From assembly GCA_948851665.1 (NCBI GenBank), contig CAQOWG010000003.1:12021-76020 (forward strand): a stretch of DNA of 64,000 nt, given 5' to 3'. The position numbers were made by a program, and so were the translations under genes. The DNA is from an uncultured Candidatus Saccharibacteria bacterium (GTDB lineage: Bacteria; Patescibacteriota; Saccharimonadia; Saccharimonadales; Saccharimonadaceae). Below the pieces are notes generated by a model. The model was not told the origin of the DNA and made no database searches. It saw only the letters and a program-made list of their open reading frames with translations. This document shows, piece by piece, positions 14,221 to 63,275 of the stretch. Position 1 is the stretch's first letter. The number at the start of each line of letters is the position of its first letter.

Positions 14221-14383
14221 ACAAAAACCTCCTTAAGATTCTTTCTCTAGCCGTCAAAATCTTGACCTACTGCTAGGAATACCTTTATATTATCACACTT
14301 AGTAGAAAAAGTCAATGCTTTTTTGCTACTAATCTCTTTTCTGTCAAGCATTTTTGTACCCAAATCAGCACCCCCAATTACAA

Positions 14384-14608
14384 CGCAGCGCAAAGCAAAG
14401 CCGCCGCCACGCAAATTATTATCCTGGGGGTGAACATAGCCGGTCCACGTATCCAGGCGGCGCCCGTTGATAGCTGATCCAGCCGTGCCAGACCACCAAA
14501 GGCCATTCGTCGTACGAGCGATGAGGTAGCCGTAGGAACGGTGGTAGAAGCCAGTACGCAGGAACTGGAGAGGCCATTCATTAATACGGTTGTAGTTGGG
14601 GGTGCTGG
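14384..14608 (-). repeat. Lectin-like C-terminal cassette, copy A
   Basis: Head CCAGCACCCCCAACTACAACCGTATTAATGAATGGCCTCTCCAGTTCCTGCGTACTGG, tail GGCTTTGCTTTGCGCTGCG. The open frame reads PNYNRINEWPLQFLRTGFYHRSYGYLIARTTNGLWWSGTAGSAINGRRLDTWTGYVHPQDNNLRGGGFALRCV. An in-frame TAA lies 6 codons upstream and there is no start codon. Confidence 0.9.
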
Positions 14609-16893: not shown

Positions 16894-16932
16894 AATACCC
16901 CCATTATATCACTTTCCTGCTATAATTATCTC

Positions 16933-20243: not shown

Positions 20244-20507
20244 ACGCAGAGCAGAGCATAACCAAGGCCGCGAAAATTGTTATACTGAACATGGATAATA
20301 CCAGTCCACGTAGTTAGGTAGCGCCCATCGGTAGCTGAGCTAGCCGTATCCGACCACCAAAGGCCACCAGTCGTACGCCCGTTGAGGTAGCCATGGGAGC
20401 GATTGTAACCACCAGTACGCAGGAACTGGAGAGACCATTCATTAATACGATTATAGTTGGGGGTGCTGGCGTGGCCGCACGTCCCGGAGCACGAGGTCGA
20501 GAAGGAC
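20244..20507 (-). repeat. Lectin-like C-terminal cassette, copy B (long 5' extension)
   Basis: The frame reads ...STSCSGTCGHASTPNYNRINEWSLQFLRTGGYNRSHGYLNGRTTGGLWWSDTASSATDGRYLTTWTGIIHVQYNNFRGLGYALLCV. There is no ATG/GTG/TTG between the upstream in-frame TGA and the head. Confidence 0.9.
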
Positions 20508-24330: not shown

Positions 24331-24593
24331 CGCAGCGCAAAGCAAAGCCGCTACCACGGAAATGGTTATGCTGGACGAGGACATTACCGGCCCACGTACT
24401 CAGGTTGTGCCCACTGGTAGCTGACCCAGCCGTGCTAGACCACCAGAAGCCATTCGTCGTACGTGCGTAGAGGTAGCCGTAGGAACGGTGGTAGTCGCCA
24501 GTACGCAGGAACTGGAGAGGCCATTCATTAAGACGGTTGTAGTTGGGGGTGCTGGCGTGGCCGCACGGCCCGGAGCACGAGGTCGAGAAAGAC
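24331..24593 (-). repeat. Lectin-like C-terminal cassette, copy C (long 5' extension)
   Basis: The frame reads SFSTSCSGPCGHASTPNYNRLNEWPLQFLRTGDYHRSYGYLYARTTNGFWWSSTAGSATSGHNLSTWAGNVLVQHNHFRGSGFALRC. It starts 28 nt after the dnaG stop on the same strand. In-frame TAGs lie just upstream. Confidence 0.9.
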
Positions 24594-29641: not shown

Positions 29642-29865
29642 GCGCACCCCCAACTACAATCGTATTAATGAATGGCCTCTCCAGTTCCTGCGTACTGGCT
29701 ACTACCACCGTTCCGAAGGTTACCTCGGCGGACGTATGGCGGGTGGCTACTGGTGGTCTGGCACGGCTGGTTCTGCTACCTCCGGGCGCAACCTGAGTAC
29801 ATGGACCGATCTCGTCAATGCCCAGGATAACCTTTTCCGTGGCTTCGGTTTTGCTCTGCGCTGGG
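29642..29865 (+). repeat. Lectin-like C-terminal cassette, copy D
   Basis: The frame reads (stop)RTPNYNRINEWPLQFLRTGYYHRSEGYLGGRMAGGYWWSGTAGSATSGRNLSTWTDLVNAQDNLFRGFGFALRW. A TAG immediately precedes the head. Confidence 0.9.
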
Positions 29866-29901
29866 TAAGCCATCATTACACAAATATAGAAGACTCTTAA
29901 T

Positions 29902-30159: not shown

Positions 30160-30204
30160 AGAATCATTATAACATTCGAGTAACGATTTATGCCACGAAC
30201 ATTA

Positions 30205-30430
30205 CGCAGCGCAGAGCAAAGCCGTCACCACGCCAATAGTTATTCTGGGCGTAGACGTAGCCTGTACGCGTATTCAGGTCGCGCCCGTCGGTAGCAGAAC
30301 CAGCCGTAGCGGACCACCAAAAGCCAGTCGTCGTACGAGAGGCGAGGTAGCCGTAGGAACGTTTGTAGTAGCCAGTACGCAGGAACTGGAGAGGCCATTC
30401 ATTAATACGGTTGTAGTTGGGGGTGCTGGC
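30205..30430 (-). repeat. Lectin-like C-terminal cassette, copy E
   Basis: The frame reads ASTPNYNRINEWPLQFLRTGYYKRSYGYLASRTTTGFWWSATAGSATDGRDLNTRTGYVYAQNNYWRGDGFALRCV. Two in-frame TAGs lie 5-6 codons upstream. It sits ~55 nt 3' of argS on the same strand. Confidence 0.9.
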
Positions 30431-30487
30431 GCCTTTGACACCACGCTACTACGCAAAATAAACTAGCAAAAAACATACAGGTATCTC

Positions 30488-48601: not shown

Positions 48602-48968
48602 ATTTCTCATTATATCATACCTTGGTGCAAAACCGCGCTATTCAACTTTTTGCCACAAACACAAAAAGTATGTTGCACTAGAATTGTTACAAGCAATACA
48701 ATTTAACGAAGTCGGATTTTTATCCACAAAAACCGATCTTCAGTCACGCAAAGTAATATTGGCGCCATGGGGTGCGATGCTTTGAGTAATTGAAGACTTC
48801 GAGTATTGTTTGTAACATCCTCGTGGTGCCATTTTTGTTATGGTAATATCTACGAACTCCAACACCTTCTTATACACGAACTAGGGGGTTTCCTACTTCA
48901 TATCTCTATCAATTCACATCGTGACTAAGCCGACCAAAATGTCTACCGTCTTCGCTCGGCGCACCCTC

Positions 48969-49194
48969 CGCAGCGCAGAGCAAAGCCGCTGCCACGGAAA
49001 TGGTTATGCTGGACGAGGACATTACCGGCCCACGTACTCAGGTTGTGCCCACTGGTAGCTGACCCAGCCGTGCTAGACCACCAGAAGCCATTCGTCGTAC
49101 GTGCGTAGAGGTAGCCGTAGGAACGGTGGTAGTCGCCAGTACGCAGGAACTGGAGAGGCCATTCATTAAGACGGTTGTAGTTGGGGGTGCTGGC
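48969..49194 (-). repeat. Lectin-like C-terminal cassette, copy F (near-identical to C)
   Basis: 224 of 226 nt are identical to 24331-24556. It begins ~10 nt after the pnp stop on the same strand. An in-frame TAG lies 3 codons before the head. Confidence 0.95.
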
Positions 49195-52189: not shown

Positions 52190-52218
52190 AAAAAACTCCC
52201 CCTCAGGGGAGTCTTTTA
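52190..52218. terminator. Bidirectional terminator between the orphan gene and rpsO
   Basis: AAAAAACTCCCC-CTCA-GGGGAGTCTTTT. Confidence 0.8.
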
Positions 52219-52482
52219 TTTCCTGAGCCCTAACTCTGCGATTGTGTTTTTGTACTTCTCGAAATCGTTTTTCTCGAGGTACTTCAGCAACTTTTTGCGC
52301 TGCCCCACCATCTGCATCAAACCACGCTTCGCCATGAAATCGTGCTTGTTTTCCTTCACATGCTCAGTTACTTCCTTGATCCGTTCGGTCAAGATCGCCA
52401 CTTGCACCTCTGGAGAACCCACATCGTTCTTGCTACGAGCGAGCTTCTTCATCGCCTCGGCTTTTTTCTCTCTAGTAATCAT
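52216..52482 (-). CDS. rpsO: 30S ribosomal protein S15
   Basis: 88 aa. ...GSPEVQVAILTERIKEVTEHVKENKHDFMAKRGLMQMVGQRKKLLKYL. Confidence 0.95.
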   Translation of the reverse strand: MITREKKAEAMKKLARSKNDVGSPEVQVAILTERIKEVTEHVKENKHDFMAKRGLMQMVGQRKKLLKYLEKNDFEKYKNTIAELGLRK

Positions 52483-52540
52483 ATATCGCCCATTATATCA
52501 CAGATTACATCCCCAATCAACCCCTATTTTGCACATACCC

Positions 52541-52724
52541 CTTAACTTCCTGCGTACCGGGTTCTACTATTACTCCGACGGTAAGGTCTACGATCGCACG
52601 ACGAATGGCCGCTGGTGGTCCGCTACTCGTAGCTCTGCGACGAATGCTAACAACCTGAACACGGATACCACGGCTGTCTTCCCGCAGGGCAGCAGCAATC
52701 GCGGGCTCGGCTTTGCGGTGCCGC
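52541..52724 (+). repeat. Lectin-like C-terminal cassette, copy G (divergent, 5'-truncated)
   Basis: The frame reads LNFLRTGFYYYSDGKVYDRTTNGRWWSATRSSATNANNLNTDTTAVFPQGSSNRGLGFAV. Its tail abuts the tail of copy H. Confidence 0.8.
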
Positions 52725-52726
52725 TA

Positions 52727-53068
52727 CGCAGCGCAGAGCAAAGCCGTGACCACGGAAATAGTTAGACTGGGCGTTGACACCGCCAGTATGCGTACCCAGG
52801 TAGCGCCCGTAGGTAGCGGATCCAGCCGTATTAGACCACCAGTAGCCAACCGTCGTACGCTCGCGGAGGTAGCCGTAGGAACGGTGGTAGTAGCCAGTAC
52901 GCAGGAACTGGAGAGGCCAAGAGTTAAACAGTCCGGAAGGCATGAAACTTTGTTTCATGCCCAGCAAGCAATTTCATTGCTTGCTCTCATCTCCAATGAG
53001 ATGAGTTCCGAACTGAACATTAATACGGTTGTAGTTGGGGGTGCTGGCGTGGCCGCACGGCCCGGAGC
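52727..53068 (-). repeat. Lectin-like C-terminal cassette, copy H (carries a 98-bp insertion)
   Basis: The frame reads ...SGPCGHASTPNYNRIN[insert]WPLQFLRTGYYHRSYGYLRERTTVGYWWSNTAGSATYGRYLGTHTGGVNAQSNYFRGHGFALRCV. It starts ~27 nt 3' of truB on the same strand. The insert supplies TTG/ATG codons, giving the 106-aa track ORF 52647-52967. Confidence 0.9.
52920..53018 (-). other. 98-bp perfectly nested four-helix palindromic element inserted in cassette H
   Basis: Plus strand: outer arm GTTAAACAGTCCGGAA, then three adjacent hairpins, then outer arm TTCCGAACTGAAC. The hairpins are GGCATGAAAC-TTT-GTTTCATGCC, AGCAAGCAAT-TTC-ATTGCTTGCT and CTCATCTC-CAAT-GAGATGAG. There are almost no unpaired junction nucleotides. 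The other cassettes read GAGAGGCCATTCATTAATACGG uninterrupted at this point. Confidence 0.85.
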
Positions 53069-53094
53069 GACTCAAACAAAGAGCGTCTGGGGTC

Positions 53095-53811
53095 CTAAAC
53101 AGCAGAGTTCCATTCTACAGCATCTTCCACTTTCCACTCCCCCACCTGCGTTCGCCGAAGCTCCTCCACATACGCTCCCGTCCCTAGCCTCTCCCCCATT
53201 TCTTCACCTAACGCCCGGATATACGTTCCACTTGATACTTTCGTCCTAATTCTCACCTCTGGCCAAGCATAATCCAGCACTTCCAAATCATACACCCTCA
53301 CCTTCCGCACCGGCATCTCCACCTGCTTCCCCGCCCGCGCCAATTTATACGCTCGCTGACCATTAATCTTCACTGCCGAATATTCCGGCACTCGCTGCAT
53401 CATCTCCCCCACCACCCCCCGCGCGCACTCCTCCACCACCCCTCGCGTTGGCACCATTACATCAACAACTTCCGTAATCTCCCCCTCTGGGTCCCCAGTC
53501 GTCGACTTCTTCCCCAGTATAAATGTCGCCTCGTATTCTTTATCAAGTTTCAAAAAATCCTGTGCCTTTTTCGTCGCTTTACCAACTAACACAATCAAAA
53601 GCCCCGTCGCAAACGGATCCAAAGTCCCCGCGTGCCCCACCTTCACTTTTTTCGGTCGCGCCGGCACGTACTTCCGCTCTTCTTCCGTCAAATCTCCGTA
53701 CTTCGCGTCCCACTCTTGCCGCGCCATCTCTGTCAATTTCCGTCGCACTCGCGCCACCACGCCAAAACTGGTCATCCCCGCCGGCTTATCAATCAATAAA
53801 ATCTCATCCAT
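53095..53811 (-). CDS. truB: tRNA pseudouridine(55) synthase
   Basis: LLIDKPAGMTSF...GHAGTLDPFATGLLIVLVG (catalytic Asp motif). Confidence 0.9.
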   Translation of the reverse strand: MDEILLIDKPAGMTSFGVVARVRRKLTEMARQEWDAKYGDLTEEERKYVPARPKKVKVGHAGTLDPFATGLLIVLVGKATKKAQDFLKLDKEYEATFILGKKSTTGDPEGEITEVVDVMVPTRGVVEECARGVVGEMMQRVPEYSAVKINGQRAYKLARAGKQVEMPVRKVRVYDLEVLDYAWPEVRIRTKVSSGTYIRALGEEMGERLGTGAYVEELRRTQVGEWKVEDAVEWNSAV

Positions 53812-53834
53812 CCCCCCATTATACCACCAATATT

Positions 53835-55256
53835 CTACATCTGTACTGGCGGCAAACTCGGTGGGTTCGCTTCCGGCCCCATTCCTTCCGGTATCACCGG
53901 TGCTGGTGGCGGTGGCAAAACTGTCTCTGGTCGCGCCACCGGCTCCCCCGCTACCGCAGGATTCGCCATTGGCATCGGTGGCATCTGCTCCGCTCCTGGC
54001 ACTGGTGCCATTGTCGGTACGCTCATCGTCTCCACATTAGGCACACTTGGCGCTTCCGCCTGCGGCATCCCCATACCCGGCATCGGTGGCATCTCTGGCG
54101 CTGGCGCAGTCGCCAAAGCCTCTTGCATCATCGTCGCATAGTCTTTGCCCGGCTCCACCGTCGGCGCTGGCGGCAATTCCGTTACCACCGCCCCAGTTCC
54201 CTGCACCGCTGGCTGATCTACTGGTGCTGTTTCCTCGGCTGGCAAGTTGATATTCATCGGCTGCACCACCACCTCTTCCGCCGAAAGCGGTACTTCCGGA
54301 ATCGAAAGATCCACTGGTGGCTCCGTATCTTCCAATACTGGCGCTGCCTGCGCTGCTGGGTTCGCATTATCCATCACATGCGCTGCAATCAACTGCTGAT
54401 CCGCCCCCATCGTCATCAATCTCGACGCCAATCCTAACGTCTCCGAATTAGTCTTCCCGTTCGAGAATCGGTCCGTCGCCGCCACAATACCCGTCAATAA
54501 TGCAGTCGCCACATCTTTATCAAGCGGCTTTTCTGTACCCTGCATCTCAAAAATCAACCGTGCTATCATCTCCGACACCGAACTCGCCGTCGGATCACAC
54601 CACTCAATCTCGCCAAACTTCCCCGGCGTATCACAAGTAATATTCGCTACCGCCGCATCATGCAAAATCCGACCATAATCCGAAAGTGCCCCATCCAATT
54701 CCGACGCTAGTTTCACGTTCAGCGCCAGCACAAAGTCTACATTATAATCCCCCTTTGAATAAGTCAAATCATCCGCCGTAATCTCCGTCCTATACGGCGT
54801 GATATAAACCTTAACATAATCCCCTTCCAACTTATACCGCAAATGGTCCGCTTTGTCCTTAGAAAGTGCAATAATAAAATCCTGCAAACTTGCCGTATTC
54901 GTCTCAAAAGTCGCCTCCGGCCTCAAAAAGTTCAACGCCCCTGGAATTTCTCCCGAGTAAATCGCCGTGACGTGTCGCTGCATACTATCTAGATAAATCG
55001 TCATCGCAATCGCCGCCGCAATCTCGTCAATATTCGGGTTATTCGAAAGCGCTACCAAAATATTTTCCGATTTCCTCAGCTTCTCAATAATCTGCTTTAC
55101 AAAATCCGCCTGTGCCACCCGCGATACTTTCGGCTCCTCCACTGGCTTCTCTGGCGTCACAACTGGCGCAACCGTCGGCGCCCCATTCCCTGCCGGAGCT
55201 ACTGGGTTCGCCCCCATCGGATTTGGCACATTAGTTGTTTGATTTTGGTTTTCCAT
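53835..55256 (-). CDS. NrnA-like DHH-family protein with degenerate catalytic motifs and a Pro/Ala/Met-rich tail
   Basis: The core (ILVALSNNPNIDEIAAAIAMTIYLDS...) aligns by eye to the NrnA motif I region but lacks the DxD/DHH residues. The C-terminal ~190 aa are low complexity. It occupies the position upstream of truB typical for nrnA. Confidence 0.4.
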   Translation of the reverse strand: MENQNQTTNVPNPMGANPVAPAGNGAPTVAPVVTPEKPVEEPKVSRVAQADFVKQIIEKLRKSENILVALSNNPNIDEIAAAIAMTIYLDSMQRHVTAIYSGEIPGALNFLRPEATFETNTASLQDFIIALSKDKADHLRYKLEGDYVKVYITPYRTEITADDLTYSKGDYNVDFVLALNVKLASELDGALSDYGRILHDAAVANITCDTPGKFGEIEWCDPTASSVSEMIARLIFEMQGTEKPLDKDVATALLTGIVAATDRFSNGKTNSETLGLASRLMTMGADQQLIAAHVMDNANPAAQAAPVLEDTEPPVDLSIPEVPLSAEEVVVQPMNINLPAEETAPVDQPAVQGTGAVVTELPPAPTVEPGKDYATMMQEALATAPAPEMPPMPGMGMPQAEAPSVPNVETMSVPTMAPVPGAEQMPPMPMANPAVAGEPVARPETVLPPPPAPVIPEGMGPEANPPSLPPVQM

Positions 55257-62876: not shown

Positions 62877-62971
62877 TTGTTATATATTATACCGAAACCG
62901 CACACATTATTCAAGTTTGAGCACTTTACTTCACTTTCAGCCTTGTATCACATATCCATTCTTGTACTCTC

Positions 62972-63188
62972 CGCAGCGCAGAGCAATACCGTAGCCACGG
63001 AAACTGTTATACTGAGCGTGGACGTAACCAGTACTCGTGTCCAGGTGGCGCCCGTTAGTAGCAGAGCCAGCAGTGCTAGACCACCAGTCGCCACTCGTCG
63101 TACGTGCGTGGAGGTAGCCGTAGGAACGGTAGTAGTAGCCAGTACGCAGGAACTGGAGAGGCCATTCATTAATACGGTTGTAATTGGG
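62972..63188 (-). repeat. Lectin-like C-terminal cassette, copy I (5'-truncated head)
   Basis: The frame reads PNYNRINEWPLQFLRTGYYYRSYGYLHARTTSGDWWSSTAGSATNGRHLDTSTGYVHAQYNSFRGYGIALRC. The upstream in-frame stop has no intervening start codon. Confidence 0.9.
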
Positions 63189-63275
63189 GCAATCCCGCTC
63201 ATGTATATAATAACTCTAGTCAAAAATCAAATTCTGCGCTATAATACTTCTAAACACGGTGGGCTATTTACAATT

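Follow-up and report, generated by a model that had tools for sequence, protein, structure and literature searches.

We analyzed a 64,000-nucleotide stretch of DNA from an uncultured Candidatus Saccharibacteria bacterium (GenBank assembly GCA_948851665.1, contig CAQOWG010000003.1, positions 12,021 to 76,020 of the forward strand), hereafter the window, and describe a 96-nt palindromic element in the spacer between the genes truB and rpsO. The element is a site-restricted four-way-junction insertion specific to the variable-region (VR) cassettes of a diversity-generating retroelement (DGR), and it looks like a new small structured insertion of RNA type. Comparison of its homologues gives good evidence that selection maintains the fold. 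As the best explanation we tentatively propose, with somewhat less than even confidence, a structured sense-strand RNA leader module that would spread by recombination among DGR cassettes. The element has the following parts, where sense refers to the interrupted cassette, cassette H:

52922..53017, minus strand (sense): the element, a net insertion of 96 nt forming a four-helix junction; bounds from alignments of filled and empty alleles
52920..52921, minus strand: two bases beside the element, CT in sense, which stand for AA of empty cassettes
53006..53015, minus strand: 5′ strand of outer stem P1, sense CAGUUCGGAA, pairing with 52929-52938
52929..52938, minus strand: 3′ strand of the 10-bp stem P1, sense UUCCGGACUG
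52986..53005, minus strand: hairpin P2, 8 bp, sense loop AUUG (plus strand CAAT); CUUG in most homologues
52963..52985, minus strand: hairpin P3, 10 bp, sense loop GAA (plus strand TTC)
52939..52961, minus strand: hairpin P4, 10 bp, sense loop AAA (plus strand TTT); TTT or TCT in homologues

The 96 nt correspond to 32 codons, and the insertion hence keeps the reading frame. An earlier note on this DNA, made from its letters, had described a 98-bp insert with an outer stem, three perfect hairpins of 10, 10 and 8 bp, 3-4-nt loops and next to no unpaired bases at the junction. Both the sequence and ViennaRNA folding bear out this architecture, the sole unpaired junction base being 52962. The insert is also discrete, but alignment with the empty allele sets its net size at 96 nt, the count of 98 having included the two replaced bases. 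In every ViennaRNA fold, the four-way junction was both the minimum free energy and the centroid structure. As RNA, the minus strand folds with −54.1 kcal/mol (z −6.38) and none of 200 shuffled sequences was as stable, i.e., the element is far better than the shuffled controls that the earlier note had suggested. The plus strand gave z values of −4.33 as RNA and −6.67 as DNA (−33.8 kcal/mol).

No described RNA family was matched at the element in Rfam 15, neither at E ≤ 10 over 52500-53300 nor at the gathering threshold over the whole window; two chance-level matches in the shorter interval (E 1.4 and 5.9) both lie outside the element. Also, no promoter was called within it. The earlier note had regarded the element as neither a terminator nor tRNA-like and as lacking a hammerhead core, and these exclusions stand. 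An intrinsic terminator was rejected, with none called at 52920-53020 and no T run after the hairpins. For a tRNA, tmRNA or tRNA-like RNA, ARAGORN and Rfam were both empty at the element, and its loops have 3-4 nt rather than 7-8 nt. Small self-cleaving ribozymes (hammerhead, hairpin, twister-sister) were rejected given no Rfam match at E ≤ 10, one unpaired junction nucleotide and perfect helices.

Covariation, an analysis that had likewise been suggested, was evaluated over 14 distinct element sequences. Read as the sense strand, 99.4% of the cells form standard pairs, with 37 G·U cells spread over 11 pairs and three broken cells, one of them A × C. Read as the antisense strand, 92.6% are paired, with one G·U cell and 39 broken cells; the sense A × C mismatch is the sole broken cell able to wobble-pair on the antisense strand. 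Six pairs carry compensatory double changes, a number reached by none of 500 shuffles, and controls in a slid register were paired to 35-44%. Three pairs show the series A-U / G·U / G-C or U-A / U·G / C-G, and RNAalifold found the same four helices unguided. In P1, a U·G wobble is C-G in four homologues and two pairs have compensatory double changes; in P2, U-A, U·G and C-G are all seen at one pair; in P3, three pairs have compensatory double changes and all 14 aligned variants have the same GAA loop. Divergent copies on related contigs (L034, L035, L036 and L005) keep all four helices with up to ~29% of their positions unlike those of the window copy. The copy in L034, at ~29%, folds on its own into the same junction (z −6.74).

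A DNA cruciform, as the earlier note had considered, is ruled out because it needs both strands paired and antisense pairing is worse. The data point to a single-stranded sense species, most likely RNA, as the one that folds. Over top-strand single-stranded DNA (ssDNA), RNA would also be preferred: filled cassettes are found both co-oriented with and opposed to neighbouring genes, which disfavours a replication-strand (lagging-strand template) effect and mildly favours RNA.

The cassettes of the window are VRs of a DGR, which the earlier note had missed. The 64 kb contain eight VR mini-cassettes, one every ~8 kb and all of them intergenic:

14383-14608, 20244-20490, 24331-24576, 29644-29867 (plus sense), 30203-30431, 48966-49194, 52725-53068 (cassette H), 62969-63189: VR mini-cassettes

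They encode ~75 residues, which match only positions 121-186 of the 187 in the Pfam model of the lectin-type domain Fib_succ_major (E 0.01), its final third. A protein search returned 110 small open reading frames (ORFs) of 65-130 residues and none larger. In 98 aligned cassette proteins, the variable positions are nearly only residues encoded by NNC, with K, Q, E, M and W essentially absent. One of the matches, P0097, has Asn at 14 of 17 variable positions. It comes from a related contig outside the window, L030, which stems from the same metagenome as L047, a contig with a filled truB allele; the sample names of the related contigs suggest mouse gut. The relevant features of this contig are:

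L030 8004-8190, plus strand: template repeat (TR), whose translation is P0097
L030 8339-9607, minus strand: RVT_1 reverse transcriptase (RT) gene, adjoining the TR and convergent with it

Because its variable positions are Asn-rich (AAC in the TR) and an RVT_1 gene lies alongside, we assign P0097 as the DGR template repeat. Mismatches between cassettes and the L030 TR fall on TR adenines in 18 of 18 cases for the L031 cassette, 13 of 15 for L032 and 20 of 30 for the VR of cassette H, with adenine making up 24% of the TR. The seven window cassettes without the element seem to be orphan VRs that lack a start and still show the signature of adenine mutagenesis. No RT gene was found in the window, and a YxDD motif search of the window and the early loci was empty. 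The L030 RT scored below every curated NCBIfam cut-off (best was a group II RT model with 88 bits against a cut-off of 300), and a 344-residue gene near it matched no family. The VRs at 24331-24523 and 48966-49161 are nearly identical, hypervariable codons included, which indicates recent gene conversion or duplication between these distant cassettes.

Cassette H itself consists of the element and two further parts:

53018..53068, minus strand: upstream half of the cassette leader, outside the template repeat and common to the cassettes at 20.4k and 24.5k
52725..52910, minus strand: DGR variable region of cassette H; homology to the template repeat begins at CAGTTCCTGCG

Where H is interrupted, the seven remaining window cassettes read GAGAGGCCATTCATTAATACGG; the insertion site in cassettes is ATTAATG^AATGG. 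The element belongs to the leader, which is not templated, and 12 nt separate it from the VR and the start of TR homology downstream. Beside the element, other filled copies have AA, AT or CT. A second copy is absent from the 64-kb window, as the earlier note had stated: mismatch-tolerant searches with P4 and the outer stem returned the self-match only, and the covariance model found no other.

The search for homologues, which the earlier note had also suggested, found copies in many assemblies. About 20 of the 110 cassette ORFs start with element-encoded peptides (MKQSFMPSGLFNS, MKLCFMPSGLFNY or MPSGLFNY). From fetched contigs and a metagenome scan we collected 21 filled loci with 15 distinct element sequences in about eight or more upstream contexts. 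In all 21, the element occupies the identical cassette position in the same orientation, and it measures 96 nt except in one subgroup with 94 nt; no clean target-site duplication was seen. Scanning metagenomes for P3 alone yielded nine true copies, all in cassettes, besides 13 unrelated hairpins. A covariance model built from the alignment found only the known copies in 170 kb (window and related loci), with 96-116 bits on the sense strand and at most 24 bits on the antisense strand. The window element scored 115.9 bits on the minus strand; on the plus strand, a partial match limited to P4 did not exceed 18 bits. A genome-collection scan with GTTTCATGCCTTCCGGACTG gave two chance matches in unrelated genes (metagenome-assembled genomes of a Xanthobacteraceae and a Bacteroidetes member) and none in the lineage's own genomes, and a viral-contig scan with GCTTGCTGGGCATGARAC matched nothing.

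The P4 triloop (52949-52951; homologues in L004, L019, L026 and others) is AAA, TTT or TCT in sense among otherwise near-identical copies, and the exchange of AAA and TTT looks like a hairpin-loop flip. We rejected DGR adenine mutagenesis as the source of element variation (AAA to TTT or TCT, AA to AT or CT) because most stem and loop adenines, including those of GAA, are invariant and the L030 TR omits the leader.

The element is precisely gained or lost at single loci. Downstream of uvrD, L031 is empty, with an uninterrupted 84-residue cassette (MTNPNG...), and L032 and L033 are filled. The flanks of this locus are ~98% identical, and the element lies exactly between ATTAATG and the former AATGG. 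The second comparison concerns the spacer that contains cassette H:

53095..53811, minus strand: truB (Pfam TruB_N, E 1.6e-48), upstream of the element on the same strand
52216..52482, minus strand: rpsO (ribosomal protein S15), downstream of the element on the same strand

A look-up with the window S15 protein gave ten strains with identical S15. One of these, L046, has a different upstream gene and no cassette H, and was left out of the spacer lengths:

613-nt truB-rpsO spacer: filled; window, L039, L040, L041, L044, L047
517-nt truB-rpsO spacer: empty, exactly 96 nt shorter; L038, L043
416-nt truB-rpsO spacer: empty, with an extra 101-nt deletion; L042, L045

The VR of empty L043 is identical over 186 of 186 positions to that of filled L040, L041, L044 and L047 and the leader is the same too, so that the cassettes differ only in the element and the adjacent AA/CT. 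As filled and empty alleles otherwise share leader and VR, the element was gained or lost very recently at this locus. Autoregulation of S15 was rejected as a role, with the element also present at uvrD and other loci and ~430 nt away from rpsO.

The insertion alters the coding potential of cassette H. In the cassette frame, it introduces the following codons:

52974-52976, minus strand: in-frame UGA, overlapping the P3 loop
52965-52967, minus strand: in-frame TTG
52956-52958 and 52941-52943, minus strand: two in-frame ATGs, both within P4

All of these codons are present where the earlier note had reported an in-frame TGA followed by TTG and ATG codons. Its statement that H is the only window cassette with a start codon in this frame was likewise correct: upstream of the VR, ATG, GTG and TTG are absent from all seven uninterrupted window cassettes. 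AUG 2 is kept in all 15 variants and AUG 1 in 14, with GUG in L005. Most filled copies have no start codon upstream of the element.

We explain these observations by a selectively maintained four-helix junction that would act as a single strand with the orientation of the cassette sense strand, most likely within an RNA transcribed through the truB-rpsO spacer. It would be a discrete module that orphan VR mini-cassettes, a dispersed family, either have or lack at a single site, ATTAATG^AATGG. Its spread would proceed by copying from a filled to an empty paralogue through homologous recombination or gene conversion via the near-identical flanks, and not by transposition. The UGA in P3 breaks the ancestral leader frame and the N-terminus is replaced, with two in-frame AUGs on offer that are buried in P4. 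As a structured 5′ leader that doubles as an alternative start module, the element may then gate translation or processing through its unfolding. It may benefit its host (translation gating, processing or stability) or be purely self-serving; any effect on translation or stability is conjectural. Recombination probably explains the data more simply because the cassette flanks are nearly invariant (leader CAACTACAACCGTATTAATG and TGGCCTCTCCAGTTCCTGCGTACTGG), the change from AA to CT accompanies the element, markers upstream of the element co-vary at uvrD (4 of the 30 nt just upstream differ, compared with 3 of ~140 nt further out), and two window loci have near-identical VRs. Transposition of the usual kind is unlikely because there is one target site, no clean duplication and no transposase gene in any locus.

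Several points weigh against this explanation. On the side of translation, the mini-ORF covers no more of a Fib_succ_major-type lectin domain than its C-terminal third. In AlphaFold2 predictions, the element-initiated ORF and the longest ancestral ORF reached values of the predicted local distance difference test (pLDDT) of 41.5 and 41.9, respectively, with a predicted template modelling score (pTM) of 0.18; the mini-ORF is therefore not predicted to fold, and a translational role may be irrelevant. With only this part of the domain and a pLDDT of ~42, the start codon in cassette H may matter little. Moreover, both AUGs are base-paired, neither has a Shine-Dalgarno sequence at a normal distance, and in L027 an in-frame TAA follows right after the element. 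On the side of RNA, the sense strand is strongly G-rich over C, which alone could favour G·U over A × C about 2:1, and G·T pairs are tolerated in ssDNA. The invariant GAA triloop, found in the context C-GAA-G in one subgroup, is also a very stable DNA hairpin motif. As to the spread, our searches turned up no donor copy of the locus-specific variant (loop AUUG, GAGAUGAG), and the element's presence in some strains and absence from near-identical ones resembles selfish or neutral turnover more than the behaviour of an essential regulator.

The element might alternatively be a selfish mobile element of ssDNA, of the type of palindrome-associated transposable elements derived from IS200/IS605 (PATE) or of miniature inverted-repeat transposable elements (MITE), with a trans-acting transposase or nuclease that would read the hairpins on one strand and insert it 3′ of ATTAATG. 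Precise presence and absence fits this idea, as do the outer stem as a 10-bp terminal inverted repeat, the strand-specific conservation of the structure, the fixed left flank ATTAATG with its likeness to the right end (TTAAT / TTAAC), the perfect conservation of length (96 nt, with 94 nt in a single subgroup) and the lack of a clear host function. We nevertheless consider it rather unlikely. Each copy sits at one position of one repeat family with a single copy in the window, although from its length the short motif TTAAT(G) should recur genome-wide. In place of a target-site duplication there is only the imperfect TTAAT/TTAAC repeat, with a following flank unlike the empty site, and the adjacent change from AA to CT is not accounted for by transposition. 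The gene tables of the loci examined list no transposase near any copy, and with cassettes in both orientations relative to their neighbours there is no consistent lagging-strand template. The earlier note's miniature structured mobile element is upheld as a discrete unit that is precisely gained and lost, but mobility of MITE type fails on the single position: neither the window nor 170 kb of related loci nor the metagenome scan contained a copy at an unrelated site.

The element is unlikely to take part in DGR homing. A DNA-level accessory of retrohoming, which could for example mark where cDNA integration ends on the 5′ side of the target's sense strand, or insulate that boundary, would suit a position 12 nt upstream of TR homology, a sense strand that pairs with cDNA and an invariant GAA loop; DGR targets do use a DNA hairpin or cruciform with a sequence-specific loop (PMC3240598). 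Against this, most VR cassettes lack the element and yet have the DGR mismatch signature (18 of 18 in the uvrD cassette of L031), and filled and empty truB alleles have identical VRs, i.e., no visible effect. Moreover, in the BPP-1 prototype, sequence upstream of the VR was dispensable and the required hairpin lay downstream of it (PMC3240598), and we regard such an accessory as very unlikely. Equally improbable to us is neutral palindromic junk, with hairpins kept by arm-to-arm correction of the DNA (template switching) and carried along passively when cassettes are duplicated. The P4 loop, AAA, TTT or TCT in otherwise identical copies with AAA/TTT like a hairpin flip, and the polymorphism of the insert among close relatives would agree with it. 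Arm correction would, in contrast, yield Watson-Crick pairs on both strands and not 37 G·U cells on one; L034 has retained its four helices despite its divergence, and filled and empty alleles around an identical VR mean an independent indel of the element rather than passive carriage. Finally, an intervening sequence that is removed from the RNA or bypassed by the ribosome would restore the ancestral leader ORF: the frames on both sides of the 32 codons coincide, removal yields RIN-E/D/A-W as in uninterrupted cassettes, and AAT and AAC flank the element in frame in most copies. We find this extremely improbable, with no catalytic core and almost nothing unpaired, no Rfam intron or ribozyme match, a 94-nt subgroup that is out of frame and most filled copies without an upstream start codon anyway. 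Ribosomal bypass with AAT as take-off and AAC as landing codon was rejected because L034 has AAG as the landing codon and L027 has TAA after the element.

Small palindromic insertions such as the Rickettsia palindromic elements (RPE), Correia/CREE, ERIC and BOX are spread over many unrelated target sites. Our element resembles them in being ~100 nt long, non-autonomous and highly self-complementary, and it shares with RPE and Correia the in-frame insertion into ORF-like sequence, the polymorphism between close strains and, as we infer for our element, co-transcription. In contrast to all of these, it occupies one site in one repeat family and forms a four-way junction instead of one long hairpin, and most copies bring an in-frame stop codon. 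The hairpin or cruciform known from DGR targets (Guo et al. 2011, PMC3240598) is required for homing and consists of one 24-bp hairpin directly downstream of the VR and the initiation of mutagenic homing (IMH) sequence. It and our element are both small structured flanks of a VR in which stems vary and one loop is invariant, whereas our element lies upstream of the VR, is a 96-nt four-helix junction, is optional and is conserved as a single (sense) strand.

Like integron attC sites, the element has a strand-specific, single-stranded fold that is conserved over sequence, and one of its ends, GTTTAAC, fits RYYYAAC. Unlike in attC, the box polarity is reversed (5′-GTT...AAC-3′ versus 5′-...AAC...GTT-3′), there are no extrahelical bases and three perfect hairpins lie inside; no integrase is listed near element copies in the gene tables of any locus. 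Retron msr-msd and DGR TR-spacer (TR-Sp) non-coding RNAs also have an outer closing stem around several hairpins, and the lineage has an RT, but the element is found in the target and not in the template and its stems lack an adenine-mutagenesis signature. The gene tables of the window and loci show no RT gene adjoining any element copy. With 5′ leaders that sequester start codons (RNA thermometers, translational operators) it shares starts within a stable helix and covariation on the transcript strand; it differs in having no conserved unpaired pocket and no normally spaced Shine-Dalgarno sequence, in being optional at orthologous loci and in preceding an ORF of doubtful function.

We know of no cis element upstream of the variable region for such DGR targets. 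If the sense-strand fold is functional, it would represent an undescribed structured RNA motif tied specifically to them. More speculatively, in a lineage with dozens of dispersed, start-less DGR cassettes, the element could carry the only start codons, hop between cassettes by recombination and so select which hypervariable cassette is expressed, or it could be a parasite or a new structured homing element of DGR targets; we consider these ideas improbable. In the former case, DGR mutagenesis would be combined with antigenic variation of the cassette type. In the latter, the fold might drive through heteroduplex repair or exploit single-stranded intermediates of the DGR or the lagging strand. 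With clean filled and empty alleles in natural populations, a role of the element in regulation, processing or homing can be tested directly. The context is unusual as well: a single DGR seems to serve numerous scattered mini-cassettes, most of them start-less, which raises the question of the purpose of orphan VRs.

The truB-rpsO spacer contains a further VR-like sequence:

52547..52765, plus strand: H′, a second, diverged VR-like copy, inverted and tail-to-tail with H; sequence FLRTGFYYYSDGKVYDRTTNGRWWS...

The 3′ ends of H and H′ overlap as an inverted repeat, and the 101-nt deletion in L042 and L045 fuses them. In L040 and L043, which have the same H VR, the H′ sequences are very different, so active diversification at this locus may be directed at H′, perhaps from a second template repeat. 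Tail-to-tail VR pairs are also found at 29.7k/30.3k of the window and in L026 and L027. truB is short (238 residues), and the TruB_C_2 domain is matched at positions 1-36 of 66 only. As the cassette leader starts 27 nt past its stop codon, the cassette may have replaced the 3′ end of truB.

The window is a segment of bacterial chromosome, with truB, rpsO, pnp and ftsK on the minus strand as well as RNase P RNA, tmRNA and four tRNAs (Rfam at the gathering threshold, ARAGORN). Between rpsO and pnp, an ORF at 51487-52065 matches no family and is called on opposite strands across assemblies; an inversion was ruled out since the DNA is collinear and 99.9% identical, and the discrepancy is an annotation artefact. 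rpsO has its own promoter-like site at 52520-52492. In many minus-strand genes, including rpsO and truB, TATAAT stands 6-10 nt ahead of the ATG (for example at 52483-52507, 53812-53836 and 16894-16918), which suggests that leaderless or very short-leader mRNAs are common in the host organism. The whole window (1-64000) shows a uniform and very strong GC skew, between −0.13 and −0.46 per 2 kb, and because nearly all genes of the window lie on the minus strand, the coding strand is G-rich.

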